Assembly: GCA_032250835.1 (NCBI GenBank)
Contig: JAVVEA010000005.1
Span: forward strand, 64,001 to 128,000
DNA: 64,000 bases
DNA from: a bacterium
GTDB lineage: Bacteria > SAR324 > XYD2-FULL-50-16
Direction of reading: 5' to 3'
Shown here: positions 43,287 through 63,550 of the stretch, in pieces
Layout: each line of letters opens with the position of its first letter
How positions within the stretch are numbered: position 1 is the first letter of the stretch
Program-made: the position numbers and the translations under genes
Notes under the pieces: generated by a model
Told to the model about the DNA's origin: nothing
Database searches by the model: none
The model's input: only the letters and a program-made list of their open reading frames with translations

Positions 43287-43331
43287 GGACTCAATGTAAA
43301 GACTGGCGCAGTGCCGGTCAAGGAAAGCAAT

Positions 43332-43682: not shown

Positions 43683-44400
43683 GACCCAGTTCCTGTTCCA
43701 AGTACGCGCCTAAGGCCTTGATCCCTAAGGTCTCGGTGGCATAGTGCCCCGCGGCGATGTAGTGGGCCCCGGCGTCCTGGGCCTGACCGAAGTTAAATTC
43801 ACTGCCTTCGCCGGTCAAGTAGGCCTGGGCCCCCGCTGCCACGGCAGCCTCGAAATATTTCTGGGCTCCTCCGCTGCAAATCGCCAACCGCTCGATTTGC
43901 TTGGGCCCGAAATCAAGCCAAACCGGGGCGCGGCCCAAGGTTTCGGTGAGCCGCTCAGTAAGGCTTTGTTTCTGGTTATATGCCGGGCGGCCCATCAACA
44001 GCATGGGACGGCCCGAATCACCTAAAACCCACTCTAAATCTTGCATCCCCAAGGCTTCGGCCAGTTGGGCGTTATTACCCAATTGGGGGTGATAGTCCAA
44101 AGGCAGGTGGTAACTCGCCGCCGCCACACCCGAAACCAACAGGGACCGGAGCTTGCGGGCAAAGGGACCAACCACCCTGGGGTCGTTCCCATCCCAAAGA
44201 ATCCCATGATGCGTGATCATCAACTCGGCACCTAGGTCTAAGGCCTGCTCGATCAATTCAGAGGTCAGCGAAACCCCTAGAGCCACCAAGCGGACCTCGC
44301 GCCCGTCTCCCTCGACCTCCATTCCGTTGGGGCAATAGTCTTTAAACTCTTGGATCTTGAGCAGTTGGTCGCAGAATTTGATCACTTCGGCTTGGTTCAC
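43645..44400 (-). CDS. Nif3-like dinuclear metal-centre protein (YbgI family)
   Basis: DYCPNG, THHG, YHLPLD, GHYATE; GTG start. Confidence 0.92.
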   Translation of the reverse strand: MNQAEVIKFCDQLLKIQEFKDYCPNGMEVEGDGREVRLVALGVSLTSELIEQALDLGAELMITHHGILWDGNDPRVVGPFARKLRSLLVSGVAAASYHLPLDYHPQLGNNAQLAEALGMQDLEWVLGDSGRPMLLMGRPAYNQKQSLTERLTETLGRAPVWLDFGPKQIERLAICSGGAQKYFEAAVAAGAQAYLTGEGSEFNFGQAQDAGAHYIAAGHYATETLGIKALGAYLEQELGLKTQFLQTANPL

Positions 44401-45134
44401 GGGACCTCCTTGACGCAACGAAAGCCCAAGTAGCTAGCCTTATAGGTTGCCGGACTAGGGGCCTGTTCCTGGTTTTTTAATTGTTGGGGGGTGGAGCCGT
44501 AAGATCCGCCTTTGATCACCATTTCCGCGTACAGGTCTTCGCGGGGTTGGTCGTCGCCCCGAAAGATCAGCGGTTGCCCGTCACGGGCGCGGGTATGGGT
44601 CCATTCCCAAAGGTTTCCGGTCATGTCCAGCAAACCTTCTGGCGTGGCCCCTTGGGGGTAGCTGCCCACCACCGATTCTCGCTCATGGCCGTCATCGACA
44701 CGCCAAAGGTGCCAGGGGGTTTTGCAGCGTTTGTCACAGATATTGGCTTGGCTCCCGTCAGGAGCGCTATCGCCCCAGGCATATAGACGGGTCGGGCCTG
44801 CCGCCAGGGTCCATTCGCGCGCGCTAGGTAGGCGCTTGCCCAAGTTTTGGCAAAACTGGGCCGCCTCGAACCAATCCACTAAGTTGGCCGGGGTCCGGCG
44901 TTCCTTAGGGAACTTGTGCTGGTATTGGGGCACGTCCTTAAAGCGGGTTTCTTGGCGGAATTTGATCAATTCGCCGACCGTCACCTCAGTGCGGTCCATC
45001 AAAAAGGGCTTCACGTCGCTATAAGCGGCTCCCCCCTCAATCTGGGCCGGGTCGATCAAGACCATGTCCGCCGCCCAAAGAACCGGGGCGCTCCAAAGCC
45101 CGATCAGACTAATCAACAGGCCATAAAATTTCAT
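44397..45134 (-). CDS. Formylglycine-generating-enzyme (SUMF1) domain protein, secreted
   Basis: RTEVT, KRLPSAREW, LLDMTGNLWEW, KGGSY, LGFRC. Confidence 0.88.
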   Translation of the reverse strand: MKFYGLLISLIGLWSAPVLWAADMVLIDPAQIEGGAAYSDVKPFLMDRTEVTVGELIKFRQETRFKDVPQYQHKFPKERRTPANLVDWFEAAQFCQNLGKRLPSAREWTLAAGPTRLYAWGDSAPDGSQANICDKRCKTPWHLWRVDDGHERESVVGSYPQGATPEGLLDMTGNLWEWTHTRARDGQPLIFRGDDQPREDLYAEMVIKGGSYGSTPQQLKNQEQAPSPATYKASYLGFRCVKEVP

Positions 45135-46341
45135 CGATGCATTCCAGGCTATGGTTCCAGGCGTCTTGTTGCTTTGCTAAAATCTCTAAGCCCCTTTGGG
45201 CCATCTGTTTTAACCTTTCGGGCTGGGCGGCCAGCGCGGCCAACTCGGCCCCTTGCTGCAACTGCACCAAGCCACCCCCCTCACAGAGCAGCGCCACCGC
45301 TTCGGTAAAGTTGGCCGTATTGGGCCCCACCACGGTGGGTTTGCCTAAGCCTACGGGCTCAATCATGTTTTGCCCACCCCGTTGGTTGAAACTTCCGCCC
45401 ACAAAGACCAAGTCGGCTAAGGCATAAAGGGTCTTTAAAACCCCTATCCGGTCCACTAGGTAAATCCCGTGCCCTGGGTAGCGGCCCTGGCTGGCTAAAT
45501 GAACCTCAAAGCCCGCTTGCTCCAACTGAGCCACAAACTCCGGGGCTTTCTCGGGGTGCCGGGGCACCAACAGGGCCCGAAACTGGTTCCGCTCTTCGCT
45601 CATTTGGCGGATCGCCGGGATCAACTCGGGCAGTTCGTCGGGCCCGAGGCTACCGCCGACCCACACAAACTCGCCGCCCTTTAAGCCACAGGCTTGGCTC
45701 CACTCCGATACCTGGGCGGCAGATGGCGGTTCGGTGAGGCCCAATTTGAGGTTTCCGGCCAATCGGCTCTGGGCCCCAAAGGCCAAAAAACCTTCGTGGC
45801 TGAGTCGGTCACAAGCCAAAATCAATTGGATTTTCTGCAACATAGGCCGGTAGGCCCAGTCTAGTTTCTGGTAGGTCTTTAGGGCCTCAGGGCCCATGCG
45901 GCCATTGACCATCAAGATCGGGATCTTTAAGGGGCCAATCAAGTTGGGCCAAAGCTCCGTCTCCACCAGCACCAAAAGGTCGGGTCCTAACCGCGCCACC
46001 AATGACTGGGTGAGCCAACTAAAATCAAAGGGTTTATACCAGACCCACTCGCCCCGGCTTTGGGCCATCTCTAAGGCAGGCTGGCGGTTGGTGGTGAAGA
46101 GGCAGGTCACCTCGCGGCGCTGGCGCAACCGGCGGGCCAACTCTAAAGCTAAGCCCATCTCGCCCACCGAGGCGGCGTGTATCCAAATCCGGGGCCCCGC
46201 TTTGGGGCCTAAGGGCCGGGGCAGGCAAAAGAAGCTCCGCCTAAACTGGTGGCGCAGCTTCGGCACCAGCAAGCCGCCCAGCAGCAAACAGGGCGAGCAA
46301 GCCAGCATCAGGATCAGATACAATCCATCAAAGAGCGTCAT
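45109..46341 (-). CDS. waaA: 3-deoxy-D-manno-octulosonic acid transferase
   Basis: WIHAASVGE, ETELWPN, VPRHPE, FVGGS...GGQNMIEP. Confidence 0.93.
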   Translation of the reverse strand: MTLFDGLYLILMLACSPCLLLGGLLVPKLRHQFRRSFFCLPRPLGPKAGPRIWIHAASVGEMGLALELARRLRQRREVTCLFTTNRQPALEMAQSRGEWVWYKPFDFSWLTQSLVARLGPDLLVLVETELWPNLIGPLKIPILMVNGRMGPEALKTYQKLDWAYRPMLQKIQLILACDRLSHEGFLAFGAQSRLAGNLKLGLTEPPSAAQVSEWSQACGLKGGEFVWVGGSLGPDELPELIPAIRQMSEERNQFRALLVPRHPEKAPEFVAQLEQAGFEVHLASQGRYPGHGIYLVDRIGVLKTLYALADLVFVGGSFNQRGGQNMIEPVGLGKPTVVGPNTANFTEAVALLCEGGGLVQLQQGAELAALAAQPERLKQMAQRGLEILAKQQDAWNHSLECIDEILWPVD

Positions 46342-50044: not shown

Positions 50045-50336
50045 GGTTGCCTTTCACATACTCCTCCCACTCAACGGGCAGGAGGTATTTTTTCTTGTTG
50101 TTACATTCCTTACAGGCGGGCACTAAGTTGCCTTTGACGCTCAACCCACCCCGACTGACGGGGATCTTGTGGTCCATCGTCAACTCGGTGGCGTTGACCC
50201 TTTTTCCGCAATAATAACAAACGCCGCGCCCGCGCAGGTTCTTCCACCATTGAGAATGCCGGAGCTCGCGTGCCTTGGCTTTTTCTCGTTTGAGGTGGGC
50301 TTCGTCAACGGAAATAAAGTCGCCTTCAAATTTCAC
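50028..50336 (-). CDS. Small HNH endonuclease-domain protein
   Basis: CYYCG...TMDHKIPVSRGG...NLVPACKECN. Confidence 0.9.
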   Translation of the reverse strand: MKFEGDFISVDEAHLKREKAKARELRHSQWWKNLRGRGVCYYCGKRVNATELTMDHKIPVSRGGLSVKGNLVPACKECNNKKKYLLPVEWEEYVKGNLDPSD

Positions 50337-51043
50337 TTACATTCCCCCACCGAACCCAAGCCGCAGACCTTCCCATCGATCCATTGGGCCCCTTCTAGCT
50401 GGGCCCCATCAAAATGCGCTCCGGTGATTTTGGCGCCGGTCAGGTCGGCTTCGCGCAGGTCTGCACCCGTTAGGTTGGTGTTTTCTAAACTAGCCCCGAC
50501 CAACTTAGCGCCCCGCAGGTGGGCCCCGATCAGGTTGGCATCGCCTAAAAAGACGTTGCGCAGGTTGGCCCGTTTGAGCCGGGCCCCTCGCAGATCAATC
50601 CCCAGCATCTTGGTTAAGGGCGCAATCAACCCATCCATCCGGGCGTTGTTCAATTCGGCGTAAGAAAGGTCCGAGCCTCCCAGATCCGCACCGACCCAGA
50701 TGGAGTTTGAAGCACTGAGCAGGTTTAAGTCCGCACCGGCGAACTGGGCCCCAGACAGGTCGGCGTTTTCTAGGTTGGCCCAGCGCAGCAGGGTCCCCTT
50801 GGCGCGGATCCCCTTGAGTTGTGCCCCTTTCAGGTCAACCCATTGCAAATTGGCCCGGTCCAAATCGGCTTGGTTGAGGTCCACGCCGCGTAATTGCCAG
50901 CTATTCAGGTCCGCTTCGGCCAGGTTACACCCGGCGCACTTGCGTTCCTTTTCCAGGCGGTCCACATCTTCGGGGAAATAGGCTTGTAGACTCAAGGGCA
51001 TGATGACCACCAAAGCGGCCAAGAGCAGTGATTTCGGTCCCAT
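50333..51043 (-). CDS. Secreted pentapeptide-repeat protein
   Basis: Signal peptide, CAGCNL, tandem A(D/N)Lxx repeats, C-terminal WIDGKVC...C. Confidence 0.9.
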   Translation of the reverse strand: MGPKSLLLAALVVIMPLSLQAYFPEDVDRLEKERKCAGCNLAEADLNSWQLRGVDLNQADLDRANLQWVDLKGAQLKGIRAKGTLLRWANLENADLSGAQFAGADLNLLSASNSIWVGADLGGSDLSYAELNNARMDGLIAPLTKMLGIDLRGARLKRANLRNVFLGDANLIGAHLRGAKLVGASLENTNLTGADLREADLTGAKITGAHFDGAQLEGAQWIDGKVCGLGSVGECK

Positions 51044-51099
51044 AGATTGATCTCTCGAAGTTTTCTTATCCTCTCCGAAATTGCTTCTGCTCGCAACCC

Positions 51100-52683
51100 T
51101 TAAAAGGTTAGGTCCACTTTGAGGCCCCCTTTGGGACTCAGGCTTTGGCTTGATTCGCCTAGCTCTAGAACCCCCCATTGGTAGTCCTGATATTCACCGC
51201 CCACAAACCCGCCTAGCGACAGGTCCAAAGGCAGCGGCCAGCGCAGCCATAAGGCCAAGGTGGTGCTGGTCCCCTTAAACCGCATAGCAGGCTCATTGGC
51301 TGGGGCGTCGGCTTCGCGGGTAAAATCCATGCGGCGGTGGATCAGGCTGATTTCGGGCTCTAAAGGCAGCGTTTCAGAGAGGTCCAAATTGAAGCGGTAA
51401 TGGCGGATTTTGGTCAAATAGTTGGGAGCCGCCGCGATTTCGGCGCGCAGGCGTTCTTTCTCGGCGATTTGTTCGGGGCTATCCCCTTCGCTGATGATGA
51501 TGTTATCCACCTTCCCGTCCACCGACCAGCCAACGTGCAACTCTGCCTTTAAGTCTAAGTCACGGTAGCTCAGCGCCATTTTGTTGATCTCCACTCGGTG
51601 ACGGAAGAAGGCCTCGTCAATATTAACGCCGTACTGCATGGGCATCCACATATATTCTATGGCCCAGGCATCATAGTCAAAACCGCCCATAATATGGTGC
51701 AACTCATTGAGCCTAAAGTCCACCGCCCCCATGTCTTCAGGCTTCCATTTATAGCGTTCCTCGCCCAGTAACAGCCGGTCAAAGTCGTACATGATGCTAA
51801 AGTGCACATAGTCCGCCTTAAGGCGGTAGTAAAACTGGCTCTGGGGCTCTTCATGTAGGCTATAGGGCATCGGGTGGGTACCGGTGACCAAAACCCGCTG
51901 GAACCCAAAGGGCCCTTCGGACAACTGTGACACGAAGCTGGGGATGAAGCTATTGACCCGAGAGCGACTCGCCCCGTAGCGGGTGCCCGAAACAAACCAA
52001 AGGCCGAGACTGTTAAAGTTTTGGTAAACCTGAGGAACAGCGTAGAAAACCTTGTTTTCCCGGTATTCTTCCACCACTTTATAGGCCCCTTGCATCCGGT
52101 CTAATTCCCGGCGGATCAACAGTGGATCGCCCAAGAGTTGCTGCGGATTGATCCGGTTTTCTTTGGGTTGAGCGGCGCAATGGGCAAAGGGATAGGGATG
52201 GGCAAAGCTAGCCTGCTGGCCGCTAGTGGAGCCAAAACTAAGCGGTTTAAGTTCTTCTTGACGGACGATGTCCCAAATTGCGTCGCGCCGGATAATGGTT
52301 TCGCGGCCGTTGAGGCTCAAAAAGCTAATTTCTTGTTCGCTAAAATCTATCGGCCAGCCTTGCACCAATGGCTTTAAAACCCCCTGGTGCCTTGTGCGCA
52401 CCTCCAAGGGGGCTAAAGCCGGGCGGTCAATCTGAGGCAAAAACAACTCACCCATAGGGTAAGAGGCCATGTAGATCACGTCGAAGCGGTCGATCTCTTC
52501 AAACTTCCCCTTTAAATCTAAAAGGGTTAATTTCTCTTCCCCAACATCCAAAATCACCCCAACCGAACGGTTGCAGGCTCCTTTGTATAAGGCGGTGATG
52601 TTGAGCGCTTGGGCGGCCTGGGGGAGGCCTACCGCCCAAAGGAGCACCGCCCCCAGCGCCATGGATTTATAAAATAAATTCAA
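51100..52683 (-). CDS. Hypothetical secreted/outer-membrane protein (paralog of 52667-54265)
   Basis: Signal peptide, aromatic alternating C-terminal strands ending KVDLTF; start uncertain. Confidence 0.65.
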   Translation of the reverse strand: MNLFYKSMALGAVLLWAVGLPQAAQALNITALYKGACNRSVGVILDVGEEKLTLLDLKGKFEEIDRFDVIYMASYPMGELFLPQIDRPALAPLEVRTRHQGVLKPLVQGWPIDFSEQEISFLSLNGRETIIRRDAIWDIVRQEELKPLSFGSTSGQQASFAHPYPFAHCAAQPKENRINPQQLLGDPLLIRRELDRMQGAYKVVEEYRENKVFYAVPQVYQNFNSLGLWFVSGTRYGASRSRVNSFIPSFVSQLSEGPFGFQRVLVTGTHPMPYSLHEEPQSQFYYRLKADYVHFSIMYDFDRLLLGEERYKWKPEDMGAVDFRLNELHHIMGGFDYDAWAIEYMWMPMQYGVNIDEAFFRHRVEINKMALSYRDLDLKAELHVGWSVDGKVDNIIISEGDSPEQIAEKERLRAEIAAAPNYLTKIRHYRFNLDLSETLPLEPEISLIHRRMDFTREADAPANEPAMRFKGTSTTLALWLRWPLPLDLSLGGFVGGEYQDYQWGVLELGESSQSLSPKGGLKVDLTF

Positions 52684-54265
52684 TGGACCCCACCAAGGAA
52701 TACTGGTTTTCCTGGAACCGGCTCGAAGAACCAAAATCCAGTTGGTAGTCGCGCAAGAAGAAATTCAGCTGGCCAGTCAAGACCACATAGCTCCCAAAGC
52801 GTTGTCTGGCATACATCAACGTCTTGATCTGATTTCCTTTAAAACTGCGGTCCTGCTCTTTAAAGACCTCTCGGTAATCTACCTGCTGCAAAATCGCCGC
52901 ACCGCCAAAGGTGATTTCGGGGTCCCAGCGGTAGTCATAATTGCTTCGCAGGTAAAAGACATCAAAACTGAAGCGTTGCAACTGGGCACGCAACTGGGAT
53001 TCTGAATCTAAGGCCAAGCTCGCGCTGATCATCGCGTCGGAGTCGTTTAGGCGCAGCTGTCGCTCATCGGGTTCATCCGCCTCGGCGTGGCTTTTGGCCC
53101 AGATCAGCTTAAAGGAGGATTTAGGGTGCTGGAACATAAACCGGAAGATCGGCGTGGCCTCGGTAGCTAAGACTTCTCGAAAAAGCCCGCCTGCGTTGAG
53201 CCCATAAATGGGATAATATACCCCCGCCGCCAGCGAAAAAGGCCCGTAATCTATCCCCGAAAGGGCTAAATAGTTGAAGCTTTCATTAACCGCCGCTTCT
53301 TTAGCGACGACCTTTTTGTAATAGTCCAGCGCAAAGGCCCGATTGGCGACCATGAACCCACTACCCGCCGCCAGGGCCATCGGGTTGCCCACAAAGCTGG
53401 CGTTGAAGAAATGGGATTTTAGGTCCGTCTGCATCACAAAAACCGGCTCTACTTGGGGCAGCCATTCTACCTGCTTGGTGCCCAAAACCGTCAGGCCTTG
53501 GTGGCTGTAAGGACGACCGGCGGACCATTGGAAGTAAAAGGGGAAAAAGGAGGGGAGTTCCTCATTGCTGTTAGGAACCGTCAGCGGCAGGCCAAACTTG
53601 GTTTCCTCATCAAAAACAAAGGGCCTTGCGTAAAACTGGGTGCGTTCTTGAAAACGCCGCAAATTGGTGAAGCCCTCTTGATAGGCCCCAAAGAACTGGC
53701 TGATGCGGATTTGATCGCTGATCACCCGGGTCGGAAAGAGCGGCTCGCCGGGTCCCGGAGCCTCTTGGTCGTGGCACTGCGAAAGCCCCTGACCCAGACG
53801 GGGCGAAACGGGCTGGGCTTTGGTCGGCGCTAGCTCGGCGGTGAGATGGACGGGCGCTTTAATCCGCACGATTTGGTCGATGCCCACCAAGGAGGTCTTG
53901 CCGTTGGTGTCGTAATAAACCACCAACTCTTCTAAGAACCGGATGGGCCAGCCAGTGAAGGCCGGACCGCCCCGGTGCTTTAGGTGGATTTCGCGTAACT
54001 CCGATTGCAACCGACCGGTCAGGCGGACTTGGGAGATCGGGTTTTCCAGTGCATTGTAGACTAGGATATGGCGTACTTCTTCGCGCCGGATACTGTTGAG
54101 GCGGCCATCTAAGCCCAACAGGTCGATTTGCTGGGCGTCTGTGTAGATGATCAACCCAGCCGGGCCTTCGCACTGGGCGTCCAGCAATCGATAGAGTTCG
54201 ATGGCCTGCGTGGCGGGAACCTGGACCAACAAAAGCGCCAGGAAGGCTAAAATTATCCGGTTCAT
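52667..54265 (-). CDS. Hypothetical secreted/outer-membrane protein (paralog of 51100-52683)
   Basis: Signal peptide; shares GWPIxF and LDxxG...IxR motifs with its neighbour; ends SIEFIL. Confidence 0.65.
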   Translation of the reverse strand: MNRIILAFLALLLVQVPATQAIELYRLLDAQCEGPAGLIIYTDAQQIDLLGLDGRLNSIRREEVRHILVYNALENPISQVRLTGRLQSELREIHLKHRGGPAFTGWPIRFLEELVVYYDTNGKTSLVGIDQIVRIKAPVHLTAELAPTKAQPVSPRLGQGLSQCHDQEAPGPGEPLFPTRVISDQIRISQFFGAYQEGFTNLRRFQERTQFYARPFVFDEETKFGLPLTVPNSNEELPSFFPFYFQWSAGRPYSHQGLTVLGTKQVEWLPQVEPVFVMQTDLKSHFFNASFVGNPMALAAGSGFMVANRAFALDYYKKVVAKEAAVNESFNYLALSGIDYGPFSLAAGVYYPIYGLNAGGLFREVLATEATPIFRFMFQHPKSSFKLIWAKSHAEADEPDERQLRLNDSDAMISASLALDSESQLRAQLQRFSFDVFYLRSNYDYRWDPEITFGGAAILQQVDYREVFKEQDRSFKGNQIKTLMYARQRFGSYVVLTGQLNFFLRDYQLDFGSSSRFQENQYSLVGSIEFIL

Positions 54266-54936
54266 GGTAAAGTGATATTTTTCACAAATCGTTCAAATAA
54301 GTCGTCTAACTGAGGCAATACCCACTCACGACCGGGCAATTCCGCTGTGTCCCAGGCCTGGGCTACCAATTGAGGGGTCAAGCAGGCTAAAGCGGGCCCA
54401 GAGATTTCGGCGAAACTGACGTGCCAAGGTTCGGGGGCCACGCCGCCTAAATCACGGGCATAGGGGCGGAAAAAACCAAAGGGGCTTAGGTTATGATCCA
54501 GCCACCGGTTTAATTTTTCGAAAACCCCGCCGTTGGCGTATTCTTCGGGCAGTAGCTGCACCTGATAACCCGGCGGGAGGGCGGCCAAATCGATCAAGTC
54601 CAATTCGCTGCCCCAATGGTGCCGACTAGCACCGGGCAGAGCCGACCAACGCAGAATCGCCAAAACCAAGGCCTCAGGGGAGAGGGACTCAAAGTCCAGA
54701 ACCTTTCCCTGGGTATCATAAAGCGGGCGTTGGCCCGTTAGCTTAAGCCGCCAGATTCTCGCCTGGCTCTCAAAATCACGAAAGCCCGAAAAGACCCCTA
54801 GTTCGATCCCTTCCTTGCGGGCTTTTTGACGTAGGTCGATAAAAGCGCGCACCGCCAAGGGCGCGGCGGCAAAGCGCGGCTCTTGCACCTGAAGTATATG
54901 CTGGCGGGTTTTCCCGGTCAACTCGGCGGGCGTCAT
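54262..54936 (-). CDS. M15-family D-Ala-D-Ala carboxypeptidase (VanY-like)
   Basis: SGFRDF, SALPGASRHHWG..LD, EPWH. Confidence 0.9.
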   Translation of the reverse strand: MTPAELTGKTRQHILQVQEPRFAAAPLAVRAFIDLRQKARKEGIELGVFSGFRDFESQARIWRLKLTGQRPLYDTQGKVLDFESLSPEALVLAILRWSALPGASRHHWGSELDLIDLAALPPGYQVQLLPEEYANGGVFEKLNRWLDHNLSPFGFFRPYARDLGGVAPEPWHVSFAEISGPALACLTPQLVAQAWDTAELPGREWVLPQLDDLFERFVKNITLP

Positions 54937-55568
54937 GAGGGATATAAGACCTCTTTTAAATCGCGCTGGGGAAGTTTGGACAGTTGGCTGAAGATGGCTT
55001 CGACCTGTTGCCGCGTTTCTTCTAAGCTGCCGGAGTTATCCACCACATAGTCGGCGCGGGCTCGCTTTTCTTCGAGTGGTAATTGGGCCTGAATGCGCCG
55101 CTCGATCTCAACTAGGTTCATGCCGCGCCCCTCGACCAACCGGCGGACCTGTTCGGCAGGCTCCAAGGCAACCAAGATCGTGGCGGCAAAGCGAGATTGG
55201 AGGTTTTTTTCAAATAATAGGGGGATTAGGTAACAGACCCGGGCGTCGGGGTCTTGTTGGAACAACTGCCGCAACAGCCGCTTTTTTTCATGGGCGATGC
55301 GCCGGTGGGTGATCGCTTCTAGCTCGCGCAGTAAAGGCAGCTCATTAAAAACGATTTCCGCCACCCTCTGGCGGTCCATTTCGCCGTTGGGCAAGAGGAT
55401 CTTAGGACCTAACAGGTCGACCACCTCTTCTAAGCCCTCACTCCCCTTGGCCACCACCTTGCGGGCTAGTTGGTCTGAATCAATGATGCGCCAGCCTAAG
55501 GCTTCAACCATCGGGGCCAGCGTGCTTTTCCCCGAGCCGATTCCTCCGGTCAAGGCCACCAAGATCAT
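54933..55568 (-). CDS. coaE: Dephospho-CoA kinase
   Basis: LTGGIGSGKST, IDSDQLAR, IPLLFE, VDNSG. Confidence 0.95.
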   Translation of the reverse strand: MILVALTGGIGSGKSTLAPMVEALGWRIIDSDQLARKVVAKGSEGLEEVVDLLGPKILLPNGEMDRQRVAEIVFNELPLLRELEAITHRRIAHEKKRLLRQLFQQDPDARVCYLIPLLFEKNLQSRFAATILVALEPAEQVRRLVEGRGMNLVEIERRIQAQLPLEEKRARADYVVDNSGSLEETRQQVEAIFSQLSKLPQRDLKEVLYPS

Positions 55569-55569
55569 C

Positions 55570-56109
55570 TCAGTTCTCCCGTAGGTACCCAATCAAAGAC
55601 CCAAACCAACGCGTCAGGGTCAGGTAATATTTAACCAAAATCAAGGCCAGGAAATACCAAACCAGCAGACTGTGGGAAATATGCAGTAATTCTAACCCAG
55701 GCCATCCGCCCAGGTGCAGACGGGTTTTAAGGTGCAACAGTAAGCCCAATAGGGCAATCAAGCCGAGGGTAGAAAAAAACATCAGGTCCACCCAATGCCG
55801 GGGGCCTCGGCTTTTTATCTCGCGGATTTGGTCGCGGGCGGCGCTGCCTGCTTGTTTGAGCGCCACCTTCGGCGCGGTACGTCCCTGTATCCGGTCGTAA
55901 ACCAAAGCGACCAATACGGTGATCAACAAGATGCCAAAGGCCCGGTGGAACAATTGCATCTCGATGCGCCCAAAGGACTCTAAGATTTCTAAACGCCGCA
56001 GACCCAAGGCGGTCAGGTAACAAAGCAGGATCGCCGAGGGCAAGCCAAAACGGCGGAACTGGCGGATGCCAAATTCGTAGGCTGAAAAACGCAGCGATTG
56101 GAGATTCAT
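55570..56109 (-). CDS. Four-TM membrane protein, cytochrome b-like subunit of the hydrogenase-like complex
   Basis: Four hydrophobic segments with His in TM2 (LFHRAFG) and TM4 (LHISHSL); third gene after the small and large subunits. Confidence 0.6.
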   Translation of the reverse strand: MNLQSLRFSAYEFGIRQFRRFGLPSAILLCYLTALGLRRLEILESFGRIEMQLFHRAFGILLITVLVALVYDRIQGRTAPKVALKQAGSAARDQIREIKSRGPRHWVDLMFFSTLGLIALLGLLLHLKTRLHLGGWPGLELLHISHSLLVWYFLALILVKYYLTLTRWFGSLIGYLREN

Positions 56110-56115
56110 CGGCTC

Positions 56116-57576
56116 CTATTGGGTAGCGTCCAGGGCCATCGCATAATAGCTATGTAAAATGCGGTTGGCGGTCAGCGGTTTGATCGGGTTGTTCTCACTC
56201 AGTCGGTTCAACTCAGACTCGACCAAGCCGGTCTTGCCGAATTCGTCACGGCTGCTGAGCGTCCAGTTGGCCGGTGCCACGATCCGGTATCCGGTGATGG
56301 CTCCTTCGCCGATAAAGACCTGGTGCATCAAGCTACCCGAAGGCGCTTCGACCAGCCCCGTCCCGGTCCCACGCCCAGAGAAGGCAAGGGGCCGTTGTAG
56401 GTTGAGCTTTTGGCTAAAATCAAAACCCATCAGACTCTTAAAGAGGCTTAACATCAAAAAGCGCCCTTCAAAAGCTTCGGCCAGCAAGCGTGAGGCCGCG
56501 CTATTAGCGCGGTCGGAGCTAAGGCCTAGGTCTTCGATCCAAGCCGAGATGCTGTCGGAAATCTGCACGTTGCCGCCGCCGTAGTGGGTCACCAACATCC
56601 GCGCCAGGGGACCGGTCTGCATCACTTCGATTTCGTACCGGGCGGCTTTGATCCAGGTTTTCGCCTCTTTTTTGTTGAGGTCATAAATCAGATCGTTGGA
56701 CAGGCTCTTATTGTCCGCCGAACGGTAATAAGTGTCCACGAAAGATTCGGTCACCTTAGCGGCATTCAGGGGCTCCAATTTACCGTCCAGGTAAACACCG
56801 GAGGTATAATAAGAGGGGTCATCTTTGGCGTTTTCGATGTCCATGGAACCGAAGCTGATGAGCTGTTGGTTCTCGCCTAGTCCCTGGGCCAACTCCGGGG
56901 TTGCGCCGATCAAGGCCCGCAGATCGCCCGGCCAAGTTACCTCTACTGTTTGTTTGATGCCTTCGAGCAGCCGCAACAACCGCATCACCTGGTCTCGACT
57001 GACTTGCTGGTTAGTCACCCCGCCGGGGATCAAGTTCATCACGATCGGGAACTTTCCGCCTAGAAGCCCCAAACATTGTTGTAGCTTGCCTAAACAGGTC
57101 ACTACCTGGGGCAAATGGCTCAAAATCAGCCGCCCGCTTTCATGGCCTAAATCGCCCGGGGCTTCTTCACGCATCGCTAAAGCCGGAAAAAAGCTAGCCC
57201 GCAGCAGGCCTTGGGCCTTAAAGTGACGCTGGTTCAGATAGTCCGGCAGGACTTCAAAATAGAAATGAGAAATATGGGCGTGTAAAGTGGAGAGCTGCAG
57301 CATGATCTGGCGGATCTTCTGGCCCCCGTAGGTAGGCTTGATCTGGAGAAAGTTTTCCAGCGCTAAGGCAGCCGCCAAACCGTGAGCCACCCCGTTTTTG
57401 GCCGAAAGGGTCTGGGTCAGTTGGACTGCCTCCAAAGGAGACTTGCCAAAGAGCCGCCCTTCCATGTGCAGGGTGCGGCCCGACTGCAATAAAACCCGCC
57501 CTTCTTCGCCGTCGGTCTCCACCGAAACCTTCAACAGGCCTTCAATATTAGGAACCCGTTCGATCAATGATTTCAA
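56116..57576 (-). CDS. [NiFe]-hydrogenase large-subunit homolog lacking all Ni/Fe ligands
   Basis: Recognisable scaffold (NIEG, HFY...LPDY, PGGVT, WIKAARY, GPLARM, EAPSG.L.H, Y.IVAP.NW). L1 reads TQTLSAKNGVAH and L2 reads RILHSYYAMALDATQ. Confidence 0.9.
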   Translation of the reverse strand: MKSLIERVPNIEGLLKVSVETDGEEGRVLLQSGRTLHMEGRLFGKSPLEAVQLTQTLSAKNGVAHGLAAALALENFLQIKPTYGGQKIRQIMLQLSTLHAHISHFYFEVLPDYLNQRHFKAQGLLRASFFPALAMREEAPGDLGHESGRLILSHLPQVVTCLGKLQQCLGLLGGKFPIVMNLIPGGVTNQQVSRDQVMRLLRLLEGIKQTVEVTWPGDLRALIGATPELAQGLGENQQLISFGSMDIENAKDDPSYYTSGVYLDGKLEPLNAAKVTESFVDTYYRSADNKSLSNDLIYDLNKKEAKTWIKAARYEIEVMQTGPLARMLVTHYGGGNVQISDSISAWIEDLGLSSDRANSAASRLLAEAFEGRFLMLSLFKSLMGFDFSQKLNLQRPLAFSGRGTGTGLVEAPSGSLMHQVFIGEGAITGYRIVAPANWTLSSRDEFGKTGLVESELNRLSENNPIKPLTANRILHSYYAMALDATQ

Positions 57577-58547
57577 GACTCATCCTCCCGGTCGTCGATC
57601 TGGTATTTGCGGGCCGAGCGTTTGGTTGCTCCGTGGATTCCTAAGCCCACCAAGGTTACCCCAAAGGCCCCGTAGGCCAAATCTTCGGCATGACGGACCC
57701 AGCCAGACTGGACCCCGGCAATCCGGTGGCTCAGTTGGCCGAAAAGACCCTGACCATGGTGCGAGGGGTAGTCGGGTTCCGAACAGCCGGTGCAGGGGCT
57801 GCCTACCGAAACACACCATTCATCGCTGCCGTTCCATTGGACGATGGGGCAGTCATTATAGGTGACCCGGCCTTTGCAGCCTAAGAGATAAAGACAACCT
57901 TCGCGTTCGCCGTGGTAGCGTACATAATCGCCCTTTTCAAAGTCGCCCCGGTATTCACAGCGGTCACAGACCAACTGTTCAAAAAACATGCGGGGCCGGC
58001 GGTGTTCGTCTAGTTCAGGTAGGCCATACATCAACAAATGGTTGAGTAAACCCAGCAGATGACGAGATTGGGCCGGTTGGCCAGGGATGCGGATCACCGG
58101 GGCGGGAGCACCCGAAAGAATCTGTCCGTTGAGGTCTAAATACCCGCCGGGCTTTTCGGCCAAATAGCTAGCTTCATTCCCCAAAAGGACCACGACCTTC
58201 GCGCGGGTGATCCAAGCATGTAAGATTTGGTTGACCCGGTCTAAGGCATCGTCGGGGAAAGCGCCTTCCAAAATGAGGATCGGTGGGCTTTGGTCTTCCT
58301 GGGGTTCTTCTCCTTCGGCCTCTAGACGGCGGAAGTAGCGCGCCAAGAAGGAAGGATATTCCTCTAGGCCCCACAGCCCGAGGCTGTGCGTCTCTGCGCT
58401 GTTGCCTTTCAGCCAGACCAAGGGTTCGGCTGCGCCCACTTCTTCCTGGGCCAACAAGTTGCTCAAGTTGGCGCTGAGGAAAGAAAGGCTCAAGGCCCCG
58501 GTGCCCAGCAGGCGGATAAAGTCTCTTCTGTTGTGTTGGTGGCTCAT
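57573..58547 (-). CDS. [NiFe]-hydrogenase small-subunit homolog (Tat signal, C-terminal TM); proximal cluster ligands absent
   Basis: NRRDFIR Tat motif; CDRC, CLYLLGCKG, NDCP, WC, PCTGCSEP retained; WLKGNSAETHS, GNEAS, PGQPA in place of the Cys motifs. Confidence 0.9.
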   Translation of the reverse strand: MSHQHNRRDFIRLLGTGALSLSFLSANLSNLLAQEEVGAAEPLVWLKGNSAETHSLGLWGLEEYPSFLARYFRRLEAEGEEPQEDQSPPILILEGAFPDDALDRVNQILHAWITRAKVVVLLGNEASYLAEKPGGYLDLNGQILSGAPAPVIRIPGQPAQSRHLLGLLNHLLMYGLPELDEHRRPRMFFEQLVCDRCEYRGDFEKGDYVRYHGEREGCLYLLGCKGRVTYNDCPIVQWNGSDEWCVSVGSPCTGCSEPDYPSHHGQGLFGQLSHRIAGVQSGWVRHAEDLAYGAFGVTLVGLGIHGATKRSARKYQIDDREDES

Positions 58548-58552
58548 AGAAT

Positions 58553-59488
58553 TTATTGACCGGTTCTTTCCCTTTGATACCGGTACAAAGGCGCTCCGTA
58601 AAGGTCAAAAAACCGCGCCGAGAGCCGCTCGCGATTGGCCTGAAGGTACAAGAAACCCTGGCCGGGGTGTAGGAAAAGCGAGCCGGAACGCCCCTGGGGC
58701 GACTGGGACCCCTTGTAGGGATAACCGCCACCACCGGAGATCAAAAAATCGGTGCCCTCAGGATTGAGCTGAATATGCTCTAAATGATGTTCATGGCCCG
58801 AGAGCAACAAATCCACTTGCTCCCCCAGCCAGACATCCCAAAGCCAACGCAGCATCGCCGGTGCATCGCCATGATCCCCTGAACCATAAAGATTGTGGTG
58901 GGCAAAAACCAAACGCCAAGACTGAGCCGGAGCCAAGTCCAGTTGGTCCTTGAGCCAACCCCAACCGAAGGGGCGGCAGTTGGAGTTGAGTCCATACAAC
59001 TCCACCGGTCCCGCGCTGAGGTGGTATTTAAAGTCCGGCATGCGCCACTTGAGGCTATGTAAGCTGTATTCACGCTGGGCCAGGACGGAGCCTTTGGCGT
59101 CGTGGTTGCCTAAAACCACCAGAAAAGGCAGGTCCAAGTCGGCGTAGACCGACTCAAAATGACTGACCCATTGGGGGTCGGCTAGGCTGGTGACTCCTTT
59201 GGGGTAAAAGTTATCGCCCAAATAGAGGACCAAGTCGCAGCCCAGTTCAGCGCAAACCTTGGCGATTGATTGGGCCACTTGGGCTTGCAACCATTCGCCG
59301 GTACCCGCGTCGCCCAAGACAATCAACCGCAGCTCCGCTTTGCCCTTAAAGGTGTCTAGGGACATCAAAGCCCCCTGATCGGCGCAGCCCTTAGCCTGCC
59401 ATTGGGACCTTAGCTGCAGCAACGCCCATAAACCTAACAACAGCAGCACAGCGGCCAAAGCCCAGCGGAAGCGGCCTTTGGGTAACAT
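58553..59488 (-). CDS. Membrane-anchored metallophosphoesterase (purple/tartrate-resistant acid phosphatase-like)
   Basis: GDAG, GDNFY, GNHD, AHH, SGHEH. Confidence 0.9.
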   Translation of the reverse strand: MLPKGRFRWALAAVLLLLGLWALLQLRSQWQAKGCADQGALMSLDTFKGKAELRLIVLGDAGTGEWLQAQVAQSIAKVCAELGCDLVLYLGDNFYPKGVTSLADPQWVSHFESVYADLDLPFLVVLGNHDAKGSVLAQREYSLHSLKWRMPDFKYHLSAGPVELYGLNSNCRPFGWGWLKDQLDLAPAQSWRLVFAHHNLYGSGDHGDAPAMLRWLWDVWLGEQVDLLLSGHEHHLEHIQLNPEGTDFLISGGGGYPYKGSQSPQGRSGSLFLHPGQGFLYLQANRERLSARFFDLYGAPLYRYQRERTGQ

Positions 59489-59494: not shown

Positions 59495-60817
59495 TTACTG
59501 GGGGAAGTCTTTAAAGATCAATTCCATCTCCGCTTCTGCCTGGATCAGCGAGAAGCGTTCCTCTACCGCTTGGCGTAAGAATCGATTGATGGCGTCGATT
59601 TTTCCAATGGCGTAGTCGATCATCTTATTGGAGCCCTTTACATAAGCCCCGATGTTGATCAAATCCTCGGCTTCTTTGAAGGTCGCCAAGGTTTGGACCA
59701 TCCGGCTGGCGTTTTTCTGCATCGCCTTTGAGGTTACCTCTACCATCACCCTGGATTTAGACCGCAAGACGTCTATGGCCGGGTAATGCCCCTGGGCGGC
59801 GATTTCTCGGTCTAAGAGGATGTGGCCATCGACGATAGAGCGCACGGCGTCGCCGATCGGTTCGTTGGGGTCGTCGCCTTCGACCAAAACCGTATAAAAG
59901 CCCGTTAACGAGCCCGATGCCTTGGAATTACCGGCCCGCTCTAAAAGCTTAGGCAGCAGCGCATAGACCGAAGGGGGGTAGCCCTTGGTGGTTGGCGGTT
60001 CGCCGACGGCCAGACCAATTTCGCGTTGGGCCATCGCAAAGCGCGTGACCGAATCCATCATCAAAATCACATCCTGGCCTTGTTCGCGGAACCATTCGGC
60101 GATAGTGGTCGCCAAATAGGCGCCGTGCAGGCGCACCAAAGGGCTATGGTCGCTGGTTGCGGCAATCACGATGCTACGCTTAAGGCCCTCGGGCCCCAGG
60201 TCGCGCTCAATAAATTCCCGCACCTCTCGGCCCCGCTCGCCGATCAGCGCGATCACGTTGACTGCGGCGGTGGTGTTACGGGCCATCATGCCTAGCAATA
60301 CGGACTTACCCACACCCGAACCGGCCAAAATAGCCATCCGCTGTCCCTTACCGGCGGTCAAAAGGCCGTTGATGGCCTTAATGCCCACGTCTAAAGGCTC
60401 CTCGATGCGGCGTCGGTGCATGGGGTTGATCGGATCAGCGTAGAGCGGGGCTTTAAAGCGGGTGAAGATCGGGCCTAGATCGTCAATGGGTTGGCCCGTA
60501 CCGTCCATGCAGCGCCCCAATAGCTCGGGCCCGACGGGCACCAAGGTCTTTTCGACACTAGGGCGGACCACTGAGTCCGGGCCGACGCCCCGGATATCGC
60601 CTAGGGGCATGACAAAAACATACTTCCCCTTAATCCCCACCGCCTCACCGGCCACTTTCTCGCCGGTCTGCCGATCTAAGATGTGGCAGCGCCCGCCGAT
60701 ACGCATGCCGGGGTTGTGGGCGCGGATCATGAAGCCCACCACCTCGTCTACCTTGCCTTCGGGCTGATCGGTGTGCAGTTGGGAGACGCGCTGGCCATAG
60801 TCGTCTAAGGAAAACAT
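59495..60817 (-). CDS. fliI: Flagellar export ATPase
   Basis: AGSGVGKS, IGERGREV, MDSVTRFAMAQREIG, KGYPPSV. Confidence 0.95.
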   Translation of the reverse strand: MFSLDDYGQRVSQLHTDQPEGKVDEVVGFMIRAHNPGMRIGGRCHILDRQTGEKVAGEAVGIKGKYVFVMPLGDIRGVGPDSVVRPSVEKTLVPVGPELLGRCMDGTGQPIDDLGPIFTRFKAPLYADPINPMHRRRIEEPLDVGIKAINGLLTAGKGQRMAILAGSGVGKSVLLGMMARNTTAAVNVIALIGERGREVREFIERDLGPEGLKRSIVIAATSDHSPLVRLHGAYLATTIAEWFREQGQDVILMMDSVTRFAMAQREIGLAVGEPPTTKGYPPSVYALLPKLLERAGNSKASGSLTGFYTVLVEGDDPNEPIGDAVRSIVDGHILLDREIAAQGHYPAIDVLRSKSRVMVEVTSKAMQKNASRMVQTLATFKEAEDLINIGAYVKGSNKMIDYAIGKIDAINRFLRQAVEERFSLIQAEAEMELIFKDFPQ

Positions 60818-60823
60818 AGGCTC

Positions 60824-61900
60824 CTAAGGATTGCTGGGGTCGAACTCAGGAGGCGCTTTCAACTCATTGGGGACCGGGCCTGTTGGGGCGGCCTGCTCGG
60901 CGGGAGCGGCCGGGGGCGCGGTTGCTGGCCCTTGGGCCTTTTCGGCGTTCCGCTCGGCCACAAAATGAGGGTCGAACAGTGAGCGGCGCTCATCTAGGCA
61001 ATCACCTAAGACCCGCTCGATTTCTTCAAACTGCTGGTTGAGGTCCATCTGAACGCGGGCGAAGTCAGTCTCGACCACCGGACCGCTGGCTGAAACGCTC
61101 TCGCTTTTGCGGAAGGTCAAATATTGCCCTTCTTCCAGATAGGCTTCTAATTCCGGCTTGTGTTTGGCCAAAAAGTCGTATTCCACGGGATGCACGGTGA
61201 TGCGCACCTTGCCCAGGCCTTCAAAGTGCTTGAGCGCTGTTTTGATCAGGTTCAAAACAAATTCAGGCCGGGTCTTTAACTCTTCATGGACCACCTTCTT
61301 AGCCATCAACAAAGTCTGTTGGACTATTTCGGTTTCGTGCTGGTGGGCCAGGGTGATGCGGAGATCTTTCAACTCGGCCAACAAGTCCGTCACCTGCACC
61401 GCCAATTCAGCGCTATCCTTACGGGCTAATTCCAGCCCCGCTTCATAGCCTTTGGCGTGGCCCACTTCATAGGCGGCCCGTTCGATTTCCTCTACCGAGG
61501 CCTCGGCCTTTTCCACCATCGCCAGGGCGTCTTTTTCGGCTTCTTCGCGCCGGATCTGGGCATGAGCTAAGGTTTCTTCAGCCTCGGACAAGGCTAAATC
61601 GGCATTGCGCATGATCAGCTTCGCCTGTCGGTCGGCCTCGCTGCGGATGCGCTTGGAGTATTCCTCGACGTTGGTCAGTAAGCTGCCCTCTTCAACAAAG
61701 GCATTGGAGGTAAACTTGCTGGCGTCGCGGGTATCTAGGCGGATCGTGGCCTTGGCGCTTTTGGTGATCAGTGATTCGGGCTCGAAGGCCCGGACCTCTG
61801 GGTCCTCCTCGGGGCCTCCGAAACTCTGCATCACCTCTACCTGCGGGGCGTCGTCCTCGCTGATGTCCTCGAATTGTGGGGGAAGGAACTGGTTTTCCAT
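60824..61900 (-). CDS. fliH: Flagellar assembly protein FliH
   Basis: Coiled coil with AYEVGHAKGYEAG (GxxxG) repeats, RITVHPVEY; lies between fliF and fliI. Confidence 0.85.
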   Translation of the reverse strand: MENQFLPPQFEDISEDDAPQVEVMQSFGGPEEDPEVRAFEPESLITKSAKATIRLDTRDASKFTSNAFVEEGSLLTNVEEYSKRIRSEADRQAKLIMRNADLALSEAEETLAHAQIRREEAEKDALAMVEKAEASVEEIERAAYEVGHAKGYEAGLELARKDSAELAVQVTDLLAELKDLRITLAHQHETEIVQQTLLMAKKVVHEELKTRPEFVLNLIKTALKHFEGLGKVRITVHPVEYDFLAKHKPELEAYLEEGQYLTFRKSESVSASGPVVETDFARVQMDLNQQFEEIERVLGDCLDERRSLFDPHFVAERNAEKAQGPATAPPAAPAEQAAPTGPVPNELKAPPEFDPSNP

Positions 61901-61921
61901 AGTTGCTTAGAGCCGGTGCTT

Positions 61922-63550
61922 TTAGGGTCCCTTCTTTTCCTTGAGCCAAGTCCGTACCAAAGACGCCGTCTTGAGCGGGTCCTGCTTGGCGATTTCGATG
62001 ATCTTGTCGCGTGGCGGAATCCCCGTTTCCTTTTCGGTCGGGATTTCCAATTCTTCGCCTTCTAGTTCGCCGATGGTAGTGGGCAGACCCATGAGCAGGT
62101 CCAAATCCTCGGGCTTGGCCGAGAGCTTCATCACCATCGGGCGGATCACCATGAAGACCAGGACAATCACAATCAAGCCGACCAAGACGTAGCGGACCAA
62201 GTCGATGATGAACTTGCGGGTCGCTTCGTTTTTCTGCTGCTTGAGGCGTTCCTGCTCGACCAAAGGCTTGGTGAAGCGGATGTTTTGCACCGTAATGGTG
62301 TCGCCCCGTTCGTTGTTAAAGCCCACGGTCTGTTTAGCGATCTGTTCGATCATCTGCAGGTCGGCGGGGCTCCATGACTTATATACAGGGCTACCGACCA
62401 CGTCGCCGTTTTCGTCGCGGACATACTCATACTTACCGTCCAACAAAACCGCCACGCTCATGCGCTTGATCTCGCCGGGGGCCTTTTTCTTGACTACATG
62501 CCGGGTGGAGTTGACGTAGTTGGTGCGCTTGACCCGCTTGTCTAAGTCGCTGACGTTGGCGATCTCGCTGGCACCGGCGCGTACTTCGGGGCTGTTGCTG
62601 GTTACGCCGGGCACGCCTACGGGAATGCTGCGGCTACCGGTGGCCTTTTCGTTGGTCGCTTCTTCACTAACCACCGCGCTTAAGTCGGGGTCCACTAAGT
62701 CTTCGGTGATTTCAGAGATATTAAAGTCCATCTCCACCGAGGCGCGCACCTCTACACGGTCCTTGCCGGTCACCTTTTCCAGCTGGCTTAAAAGCTTTTG
62801 CTCTAAGCGCAGTTCCACCAGCTGCTGGTGGCCAAAATTCTTATTGCGCATCTCTGAGCCGTCCTCGTCACCTACTTTAGAAAGCAGGTTACCGCTGGTA
62901 TCCGAAACGCGTACATCCTCCATAGACAGGTCTGGAACAGCACCGGCCACGAGGTTAACAATGGTGTTGACGCCCTTGCTGTTCAGGCGGTTGTTCGGGG
63001 CCATCTCGACCACTACCGAAGCGGTGGTGCGGCGGTCCTCGTCAATGAACAGGCTTTGTTCCGGGATGGCGACGGAGACCTTGGCGTTCTCGATGATGTC
63101 GATCAGGCTGATCAACCGGGCCAATTCCCCTTCTAAGGCGCGCTTGTACTGGACTTTCTGTTGGAATTCGGTGGCACCGAAGTTGGCTTCGTCGAAGATC
63201 TCAAAGCCCACCAAGCCACCCATCTGGAGGCCCGAAGAAGCAATCTGCAGCCGCACCTTGTCCACATCATCCACTGGCACCAAAATACCCCCACCACCGG
63301 GCTGCAAGACATACTGCACGTTCAGTTCGTCCAGTTTCTGGACGATCTTGGCGGTGTCGCCTTGCTTGAGGCCCGAAACCAAGGGTGCGTAGGTGATTTG
63401 GGAAGAAAAGAAGACGAAGGCGATCAGGCCTAATACAATACCCCCAAGGCTAGAGAAGAGGAATATCTTCTTACCTGTGGTCAGGCTTGCAAAAAAATTT
63501 TGAAACTGGGACTGAAAGTCGTCGACCAGTCCTACAGTCTGTTCGGCCAT
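61922..63550 (-). CDS. fliF: Flagellar M-ring protein
   Basis: VGFEIFD...GATEFQQKVQYKRALEGELAR, GVPGVTSN, GFNNERGD, two TMs. Confidence 0.95.
   Translation of the reverse strand: MAEQTVGLVDDFQSQFQNFFASLTTGKKIFLFSSLGGIVLGLIAFVFFSSQITYAPLVSGLKQGDTAKIVQKLDELNVQYVLQPGGGGILVPVDDVDKVRLQIASSGLQMGGLVGFEIFDEANFGATEFQQKVQYKRALEGELARLISLIDIIENAKVSVAIPEQSLFIDEDRRTTASVVVEMAPNNRLNSKGVNTIVNLVAGAVPDLSMEDVRVSDTSGNLLSKVGDEDGSEMRNKNFGHQQLVELRLEQKLLSQLEKVTGKDRVEVRASVEMDFNISEITEDLVDPDLSAVVSEEATNEKATGSRSIPVGVPGVTSNSPEVRAGASEIANVSDLDKRVKRTNYVNSTRHVVKKKAPGEIKRMSVAVLLDGKYEYVRDENGDVVGSPVYKSWSPADLQMIEQIAKQTVGFNNERGDTITVQNIRFTKPLVEQERLKQQKNEATRKFIIDLVRYVLVGLIVIVLVFMVIRPMVMKLSAKPEDLDLLMGLPTTIGELEGEELEIPTEKETGIPPRDKIIEIAKQDPLKTASLVRTWLKEKKGP

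Follow-up and report, generated by a model that had tools for sequence, protein, structure and literature searches.

A conserved SAR324 membrane module descended from [NiFe]-hydrogenases lacks all NiFe-site and proximal-cluster ligands and probably serves another electron-transfer role

This study concerns three genes in a 64-kb stretch of DNA (contig JAVVEA010000005.1, positions 64,001 to 128,000; hereafter the window, to which all positions refer unless a contig is named) from a bacterium of the SAR324 phylum. Reading of the open reading frames (ORFs) reveals three co-directional ORFs on the minus strand at 55570-58547, in the order SSU′-LSU′-MEM. SSU′ (57573-58547, 324 aa) is a homologue of [NiFe]-hydrogenase small subunits that matches PF14720 with an expectation value (E) of 2.4e-23, and LSU′ (56116-57576, 486 aa) is a homologue of the corresponding large subunits (PF00374, E 2.1e-49). 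MEM (55570-56109, 179 aa) is a predicted four-helix membrane subunit and a candidate divergent member of the Ni-hydrogenase cytochrome b/b561 family. The LSU′ gene starts with TTG and overlaps the SSU′ stop by 4 bp, and MEM lies 6 bp downstream of LSU′. An earlier note on this DNA had described three packed ORFs in the order of membrane-bound hydrogenases, and both the coordinates and the architecture are as it gave them. Overall, our analysis shows that the module is an intact, selected descendant of a periplasmic, membrane-bound, group-1-like [NiFe]-hydrogenase in which all ligands of the NiFe site and of the proximal cluster have been lost, and which, judging from its sequence, probably does a different electron-transfer job.

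With respect to the large subunit, LSU′ is a true homologue of the PF00374 family by both sequence and fold, with homology far above chance. Its nearest solved relatives in a PDB search are periplasmic [NiFe]/[NiFeSe] hydrogenases (E 6.5e-28), and its ESM Atlas model, which has a predicted template modelling score of 0.91, matches a PF00374 cluster with a template modelling (TM) score that is likewise 0.91. The comparison with NCBIfam model NF033181 gives an E of 5e-57, which falls far below the curated cut-off of that model. Aligned to the HupL protein of the same genome and to 4u9h_L, LSU′ fails the defining features of a catalytic [NiFe] large subunit, namely L1, L2 and the canopy Arg. Specifically, the L1 Cys-x-x-Cys positions are occupied by S58 and N61, the canopy Arg position (PRG motif) by S413 and the L2 Cys-x-x-Cys positions by M480 and D483. 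The chain ends at Q486, which aligns to the L2 His, and LSU′ is thus without a C-terminal extension.

These losses are shared across the family. Among 56 non-redundant LSU′ sequences, the position of the first Ni/Fe ligand (C1) holds Ser in 51 and Gly in 5, and that of the second (C2) holds Ser in 33, Ala in 10, Asn in 7, Thr in 3, Gly in 2 and Leu in 1. The canopy position is never Arg (Ala 23, Gly 20, Ser 9, Thr 2, Glu 1, Leu 1), and the third ligand position (C3) is Ser in 23, Gln in 18 and other residues in 15, including a single Cys. The former bridging Cys (C4) is replaced by an acid without exception, Asp in 51 sequences and Glu in 5. Orthologues therefore hold no Cys at C1, C2 or C4 in any of the 56 sequences and only one at C3. 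The claim that all four large-subunit Cys, the canopy Arg and the proximal-cluster Cys are missing is accordingly borne out by the alignments, including those of the small subunit described below. The four Ni/Fe Cys and their L1/L2 CxxC motifs are required for H2 activation, and we know of no precedent for such activation in the absence of any of the four Cys and the Arg. Since the NiFe and proximal-cluster ligands are all lost, the module would be unable to activate H2 in the known way.

The second sphere of the former active site is retained in LSU′ as E12, H65, D112, R363, E370 and H418, with E12 present in 54 of the 56 sequences, H65 in 55 and H418 in all 56. More generally, the conserved residues of LSU′ are nearly all shared with genuine hydrogenases. 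The family-specific conserved positions number seven, each Leu, Met or Gln, and a conservation comparison with genuine hydrogenases revealed no new constellation of Cys, His or Asp.

In terms of the small subunit, the Pfam match of SSU′ is restricted to the C-terminal domain PF14720, and the N-terminal half has no Pfam hit. The comparison with TIGR00391 gives an E of 1.2e-33, below the curated cut-off, and the nearest solved relatives are again periplasmic [NiFe]/[NiFeSe] hydrogenases (phmmer against the PDB, E 8.5e-26). An AlphaFold2 (AF2) model of SSU′ has a mean predicted local distance difference test score (pLDDT) of 55.5, that is, low confidence; its top Foldseek matches are NiFe small subunits (E 6.6e-12). 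A twin-arginine (Tat) signal can be read by eye as RRDF at residues 7-10, with R7 and R8 invariant (17/17 sequences), and the C-terminal hydrophobic, presumptively transmembrane, helix is conserved.

The Cys content of SSU′ is confined to exactly eight residues (194, 197, 218, 224, 233, 245, 252 and 255), all of which are invariant in 17 of 17 sequences. None of them serves the proximal cluster; no Cys occurs at the four aligned proximal positions in 18 SSU′ sequences. The distal site comprises Cys 194, 197, 218 and 224, the usual His ligand being replaced by Cys, and the medial site comprises Cys 233, 245, 252 and 255, including an extra fourth Cys that presumably sits where [3Fe-4S] enzymes have Pro. 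Every member shows both the replacement of the distal His by Cys and the additional medial Cys. Because the distal His has become Cys and the medial site has gained a fourth Cys, SSU′ is predicted to carry two clusters, distal and medial, that look like all-Cys [4Fe-4S] centers. The former proximal positions are unconserved between the two subclades of the family, except for an acid at one of them, and this lack of conservation disfavors a replacement cofactor bridging the gap.

The MEM protein of the window has no Pfam match of its own, and PF01292 is matched by 15 of 22 members of the MEM family (best E 1.3e-10). The AF2 model is a four-helix bundle (pLDDT 85.5) for which Foldseek ranks HyaC, the cytochrome b of hydrogenase-1 (Hyd-1), first (4gd3_A, TM 0.60), with a weak E of 0.047; the other top matches, FdnI (1kqf_C) and CybB (5oc0), belong to one family with HyaC and also have weak E-values. 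An hhalign comparison of the MEM family with the single HupC sequence of the same genome is likewise weak (probability 4%, E 0.01) and was used solely to map helices 1 and 2. Only three residues are invariant in all 22 MEM sequences, namely H55 in helix 2, G122, and H146 in helix 4. In helix 1, the His of the RxxHW motif varies across the family and has given way to a non-His residue in the window copy; helix 4 contains no second His. By the positive-inside pattern, judged by eye, helices 2 and 4 carry H55 and H146 at their periplasmic ends, a position that we take to correspond to the periplasm-side heme of FdnI and HyaC.

The ligand pattern of FdnI and HyaC consists of four His for two hemes b. 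Because only one His pair is invariant in MEM, one heme is predicted rather than two, a bis-His heme b that would sit toward the periplasm. The proposal in the earlier note that the membrane-side electron wire is kept thus stands for the eight Cys and for H55 and H146, which are invariant, but needs amending in that the distal His is now Cys and only one His pair remains. Prediction of a complex between SSU′ residues 150-324 and MEM lends weak support to their contact, with a score of 0.43 against 0.00 for the best of three controls. The pass mark applied here is reached by 58 of 80 solved complexes and by 2 of 110 mismatched pairs; only 7 of the 80 solved complexes, but both passing mismatches, reached it with a score of 0.60 or below. 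At least 85% of contacts are common to the runs, and the partner pLDDT is at least 72. Because Hyd-1 has already been solved with its cytochrome b, the pass may reflect likeness alone.

We examined the family to which LSU′ belongs using the best 150 hits from 1.84 billion representative proteins and a rough, midpoint-rooted FastTree phylogeny of 115 sequences. In this tree, 21 full-length Cys-less LSU′ sequences form one clade with two subclades (A and B), to which a further Cys-less sequence, P0031, is sister. The sources of the 21-sequence clade are metagenome-assembled genomes of SAR324/Candidatus Lambdaproteobacteria or unclassified ones, and its proteins are named in the databases either "hypothetical protein" or "Ni,Fe-hydrogenase I large subunit". 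Comparisons with Pfam and NCBIfam found no characterized non-hydrogenase family that holds these proteins. A description of the SAR324 Cys-less family was likewise not found in the full-text literature, with subscription journals and supplements outside the search, which within that scope agrees with the earlier note, whose author knew of no described family with this combination. A search of sequencing runs for the locus returned no RNA run, the sole match being a DNA run sharing 0.13 of words.

Sequence divergence between the subclades is considerable, with identities of 28-30% for LSU′ and 31-33% for SSU′. Nonetheless, among SSU′ and MEM sequences at 14-33% identity, none of the eight cluster Cys and neither heme His varies. 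The gene order SSU′-LSU′-MEM is kept in both subclades, being found at all of one set of 11 loci as well as at nine subclade A and eight subclade B loci, where the subclade B MEM was recognized from position and hydrophobicity rather than by BLAST. For the least saturated pair (L017-L019), ratios of nonsynonymous to synonymous substitution rates (dN/dS) calculated by the NG86 method are 0.05 for LSU′, 0.05 for SSU′ and 0.09 for MEM, at a dS of 1.2-1.4. Among the remaining pairs, those that allowed a calculation gave 0.09-0.21 at saturated dS; several pairs are not computable, and dS is above 1.5 or undefined for most. Where it can be computed, dN/dS (0.05-0.21) is thus not near 1, the value that the earlier note associated with a decaying pseudogene. 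Taken together, these observations identify the module as an intact three-subunit complex under purifying selection, not a decaying wreck. The conserved losses, the dN/dS values and the kept gene order all support the earlier suggestion of a repurposed complex rather than decay.

Like P0031, several further PF00374 lineages outside the SAR324 clade were observed to lack the L1 Cys and the canopy Arg (P0149, P0039/P0041/P0080, P0033 and P0036/P0067), and their positions in the rough tree are dispersed among genuine hydrogenases. In all of them, as in P0031, the L2 Cys are absent or the chain stops just before L2. It may be that group-1-like large subunits have lost the NiFe site on several occasions, or that some of these cases are truncated gene calls. 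A scan of metagenome contigs with P0031 found no relative.

The distribution of the module was determined by a profile search of 88 SAR324-phylum genomes, in which a match was defined as an LSU′ hit with an E of at most 1e-150 that reaches the end of the profile. By this measure, 37 of these genomes carry the module. It occurs in 16 of 18 genomes of family f1, plus the genome of the window, in the one genome of family f3 and in all 19 genomes of family f7, and is found in none of the 45 genomes of family f6 and none of the 4 genomes of families f2, f4 and f5. The two f1 genomes without the module are 68% and 79% complete. Weaker matches to the LSU′ profile (1e-34 to 1e-83), in f6 and elsewhere, end before the C-terminus. 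No frameshifts or stops were seen in the 37 strong LSU′ matches.

The genome of the window (G000, 97% complete) also encodes genuine hydrogenases. A full uptake cluster comprising hypA, hypB, hupS, hupL, hupC, hupD, hypF, hypE and hypD lies on contig C43 at 33800-45200, and its HupS has a Cys-rich proximal motif that we take to be of the kind found in O2-tolerant enzymes. The same contig carries a HupUV-like pair at 53583-56002, whose HupV-like large subunit is without a C-terminal extension and keeps the four NiFe Cys, and contig C17 encodes a third [NiFe] large subunit with both CxxC motifs at 24244-25600. A check of the genome for hyp genes and other hydrogenases therefore yields a hyp cluster and three genuine hydrogenases, all on contigs other than that of the window. 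The earlier statement that the window contains no hyp or hyaD genes is also upheld: none was found in the 64 kb, and the sole HypD and HycI matches of G000 lie on C43. As a separate observation on that contig, the last ~45 residues of a 134-aa ORF at C43:52150-52554 (L002:65-469, minus strand) repeat the C-terminus of the HupV-like protein, including L2; the ORF is 1 kb from the HupV-like gene and looks like a duplicated 3′ fragment.

Other genomes keep the module without such company. No genuine large subunit was found in G006, G010, G034, G035 or G044, in which only LSU′ matches PF00374 strongly; G006 and G010 have an additional weak PF00374 hit to a ~401-aa ORF that we take to be NuoD-like. 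HypD was not found in G006 (96% complete), G010 (98%), G034 (93%) or G035 (89%), G044 being outside that search. G035 and G044, both of family f7, are single-contig genomes of 1.6-1.7 Mb in which the module is kept. Moreover, in none of the loci read is the module next to a hydrogenase, hyp or kinase gene. Within the genomes searched, taken at their stated completeness, it is thus independent of genuine hydrogenase genes.

Where module and genuine enzyme occur together, the module evolves faster than the genuine uptake hydrogenase between the same genomes. Between G000 and G003 the identities of LSU′/SSU′/MEM are 65/70/61%, compared with 83/86/72% for HupL/HupS/HupC; between G000 and G007 the corresponding values are 64/60/47% and 75/77/58%. 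This comparison would be distorted if either cluster had been horizontally transferred.

The module sits in a same-strand array that runs from fliF, a fliH-like gene and fliI through a metallophosphoesterase gene, SSU′-LSU′-MEM and coaE to a VanY-like peptidase gene. The calcineurin-like metallophosphoesterase (58553-59488, minus strand; PF00149, E 2.2e-13), which has an N-terminal hydrophobic segment, adjoins the module upstream with a gap of 5 bp, and dephospho-CoA kinase CoaE (54933-55592, minus strand; PF01121, E 1.2e-47) follows downstream, overlapping the end of MEM by 23 bp. Among 17 loci searched, orthologues of the metallophosphoesterase lie upstream in three (L026, L028 and L029), and also in L010 and L015 by inspection; CoaE synteny extends to the same three of the 17 loci and, by inspection, to L012, L013 and L015. 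We considered and rejected a functional tie of the module to either flanking gene, the synteny being confined to part of subclade A, and both genes probably stand outside the module proper.

The flagellar genes fliF, the fliH-like gene and fliI occupy 59495-63550 (minus strand) and shortly precede the module in subclade A. Orthologues of FliI with 68-82% identity were found upstream of the module in 6 of the 17 loci searched (L026, L028, L029, L031, L033 and L034). This neighborhood probably reflects conserved genome order and not a functional link. Elsewhere in the window, at 50333-54265 (minus strand), two neighboring ORFs of similar size, 544 and 532 aa, each with a hydrophobic segment at the N-terminus, lie beside a gene for a 281-aa protein whose repeats resemble pentapeptide repeats by eye.

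Building from these observations, the reading we favor, tentatively and at somewhat less than even confidence, is that of a periplasmic redox module working without H2, where electrons would be exchanged among the quinone pool, a heme b and two [4Fe-4S] clusters, with LSU′ non-catalytic and off the wire. According to this proposal, the Tat signal on SSU′ would export a folded SSU′/LSU′ dimer to the periplasm, where the C-terminal helix of SSU′ together with MEM would anchor it at the outer face of the membrane. The predicted wire is short, running from the periplasm-side heme b of MEM to the distal and then the medial [4Fe-4S] cluster. As MEM no longer has ligands for a cytoplasm-side heme, the complex would trade electrons with the quinone pool on the periplasmic side, with no transmembrane redox loop, and electrons would pass between quinol/quinone and a periplasmic partner or substrate independently of H2. 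With the proximal cluster lost and no conserved replacement in its place, LSU′ would have no connection to the wire; judging by the spacing of these sites in hydrogenase structures, electrons could probably not pass between the former active site and the medial cluster. The subunit may persist as a pseudoenzyme, kept for the folding, export or stability of the small subunit.

Several points weigh against this proposal. Among the loci compared, no neighboring gene for a donor, acceptor or partner is shared by the two subclades, which leaves the wire with no obvious second end. A partner would also have to reach the medial cluster, which is usually buried. LSU′ is about as constrained as SSU′ (dN/dS of 0.05 for both) and keeps the proton-path and second-sphere residues of hydrogenases together with an acid at the former bridging Cys; such conservation might exceed what a mere cap would need. 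In addition, the heme and Fe-S content, the topology and the quinone reactivity are themselves predictions, the AF2 model of SSU′ is of low confidence, and the MEM of the window combines the lack of a Pfam hit with a weak fold match (E 0.047).

The constraint on LSU′ leaves room for an account in which this subunit has become a new catalytic or ligand-binding subunit, its former NiFe pocket binding a non-thiolate metal or a small molecule and the complex acting as a new enzyme or receptor. The pocket would be lined by Ser at the former C1, small residues at the former C2 and Arg positions, Asp or Glu at the former C4, and E12 and H65. The acid at C4 in 56 of 56 sequences, the Ser at C1 in 51 of 56 and the retention of E12 (54/56), H65 (55/56) and H418 (56/56) all fit such a site, as does purifying selection on LSU′ as strong as that on SSU′, and the invariable replacement of the canopy Arg, mostly by small residues, would enlarge a pocket rather than fill it. 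However, the conserved residues of LSU′ are nearly all those of genuine hydrogenases, its seven family-specific positions (Leu, Met or Gln) contribute no new Cys/His/Asp constellation, and the retained acid and Ser may simply stabilize a metal-free fold. A redox reaction in LSU′ would moreover have no wire, the proximal cluster having gone without a conserved replacement. We consider this account rather unlikely, although if true it would make the complex a novel periplasmic, quinone-linked enzyme or receptor of hydrogenase origin, and a second independent repurposing of the hydrogenase scaffold besides the one behind complex I. To a mainly non-redox or structural role, in which the module might for example serve as a periplasmic, membrane-anchored scaffold or docking platform and need its Fe-S clusters and heme only for folding, we assign a smaller chance still. 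The missing second end of the wire and the lack of a conserved partner or substrate gene beside the module would both be explained, and the position of the subclade A module just downstream of flagellar export genes (FliI in 6 of 17 loci searched) could be accommodated. Nonetheless, invariance of eight Cys and two His at 14-33% identity is typical of functional redox centers, and fixation of the distal His-to-Cys change and of the fourth medial Cys suggests tuned clusters.

The remaining explanations fare worse. G000 has a full set of uptake-hydrogenase and hyp genes, together with HupUV-like proteins and one further [NiFe] enzyme, and sensor hydrogenases are likewise without a C-terminal extension; both facts would suit an accessory that serves the cell's own genuine hydrogenases, whether an assembly factor, a decoy for Tat export or maturation, or a redox or H2 sensor. 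Five genomes with the module, however, have no genuine large subunit that could be found, and in four of these HypD was not found either; in the loci read the module is never beside hydrogenase, hyp or kinase genes, and in G000 it is on a different contig from the genuine hydrogenase genes. Sensor hydrogenases also keep their NiFe Cys, as does the HupV-like protein of this genome. An accessory function is very improbable, and was rejected on the ground that the module occurs without genuine hydrogenases. Least credible of all is that the genes are a decaying pseudogene cluster or encode an enzyme still active on H2 through unconventional ligands. All canonical ligands are indeed missing, and the module evolves faster than the genuine enzyme (65/70/61% against 83/86/72% between G000 and G003). 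Decay is nevertheless contradicted by the absence of frameshifts or stops in the 37 strong matches, by dN/dS of 0.05-0.2 and by conservation of the replacement motifs themselves, and we rejected it because the module is conserved. Residual H2 activity would be without precedent known to us in the absence of the four Cys and the Arg, and the module occurs in genomes in which a search for HypD found none.

The H2-independent redox module that we favor can be set against known systems, of which the closest are the group 1 membrane-bound hydrogenases such as E. coli Hyd-1 (HyaABC), the membrane-bound hydrogenase of R. eutropha (HoxKGZ) and HupSLC of G000 itself. These share with the module the gene order, a Tat signal and C-terminal helix on the small subunit, matching folds of all three subunits (the match of MEM being a weak one), the medial and distal sites, and many second-sphere residues of the large subunit. 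The module differs from them in having no NiFe ligands, canopy Arg or proximal cluster, in its distal Cys in place of His, in its four medial Cys (an arrangement known from [NiFeSe] enzymes and the P238C variant), in its one heme His pair rather than two, and in the absence of a C-terminal extension and of adjacent protease or hyp genes. Among PF01292 cytochromes, HyaC, FdnI and CybB resemble MEM in its predicted four-helix bundle and in a helix-2 His and one helix-4 His, whereas MEM is shorter (165-195 aa across its family) and its helix-1 and second helix-4 His are not conserved. The HupUV/HoxBC sensors are comparable in that their large subunit, like LSU′, stops at the L2 His with no extension, and in not being energy-conserving. 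Unlike the module, they keep all four Cys, have no Tat signal or membrane anchor, and operate together with a histidine kinase.

Modules of hydrogenase origin that have no NiFe site are represented by NuoD/NuoB of complex I and by the group-4-related Ehr and Mbx complexes. Like the SAR324 module, these retain a large-subunit homologue without the Ni/Fe Cys in a membrane redox complex, and by analogy they are a precedent for repurposing rather than decay. They are cytoplasm-facing, group-4-derived and joined to antiporter-like subunits, and they keep the proximal cluster (N2) but are without medial and distal clusters. The SAR324 module reverses this pattern: it is group-1-like and, by prediction, Tat-exported and periplasmic, has lost the proximal cluster and kept the medial and distal sites, and has the 179-aa cytochrome-b-like MEM as its sole membrane partner. 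The likeness to NuoD drawn in the earlier note thus holds as a concept but not for the clusters, complex I having kept its proximal and lost its distal ones.

These results bear on how hydrogen metabolism is read from genomes. Hydrogenase surveys usually go by family membership, and the label "Ni,Fe-hydrogenase I large subunit", which several sources attach to members of this family, would lead to H2 oxidation being wrongly credited to SAR324/Lambdaproteobacteria genomes. Group 4, which is cytoplasmic, gave rise to the NiFe-less hydrogenase descendants known so far, whereas the SAR324 module comes from the periplasmic respiratory type, and it thus constitutes an independent natural experiment on the reuse of a complex metalloenzyme scaffold. 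With three genes, two predicted clusters and one predicted heme, the module is a defined target, and it may reveal a new periplasmic electron-transfer route in a widespread uncultured phylum.

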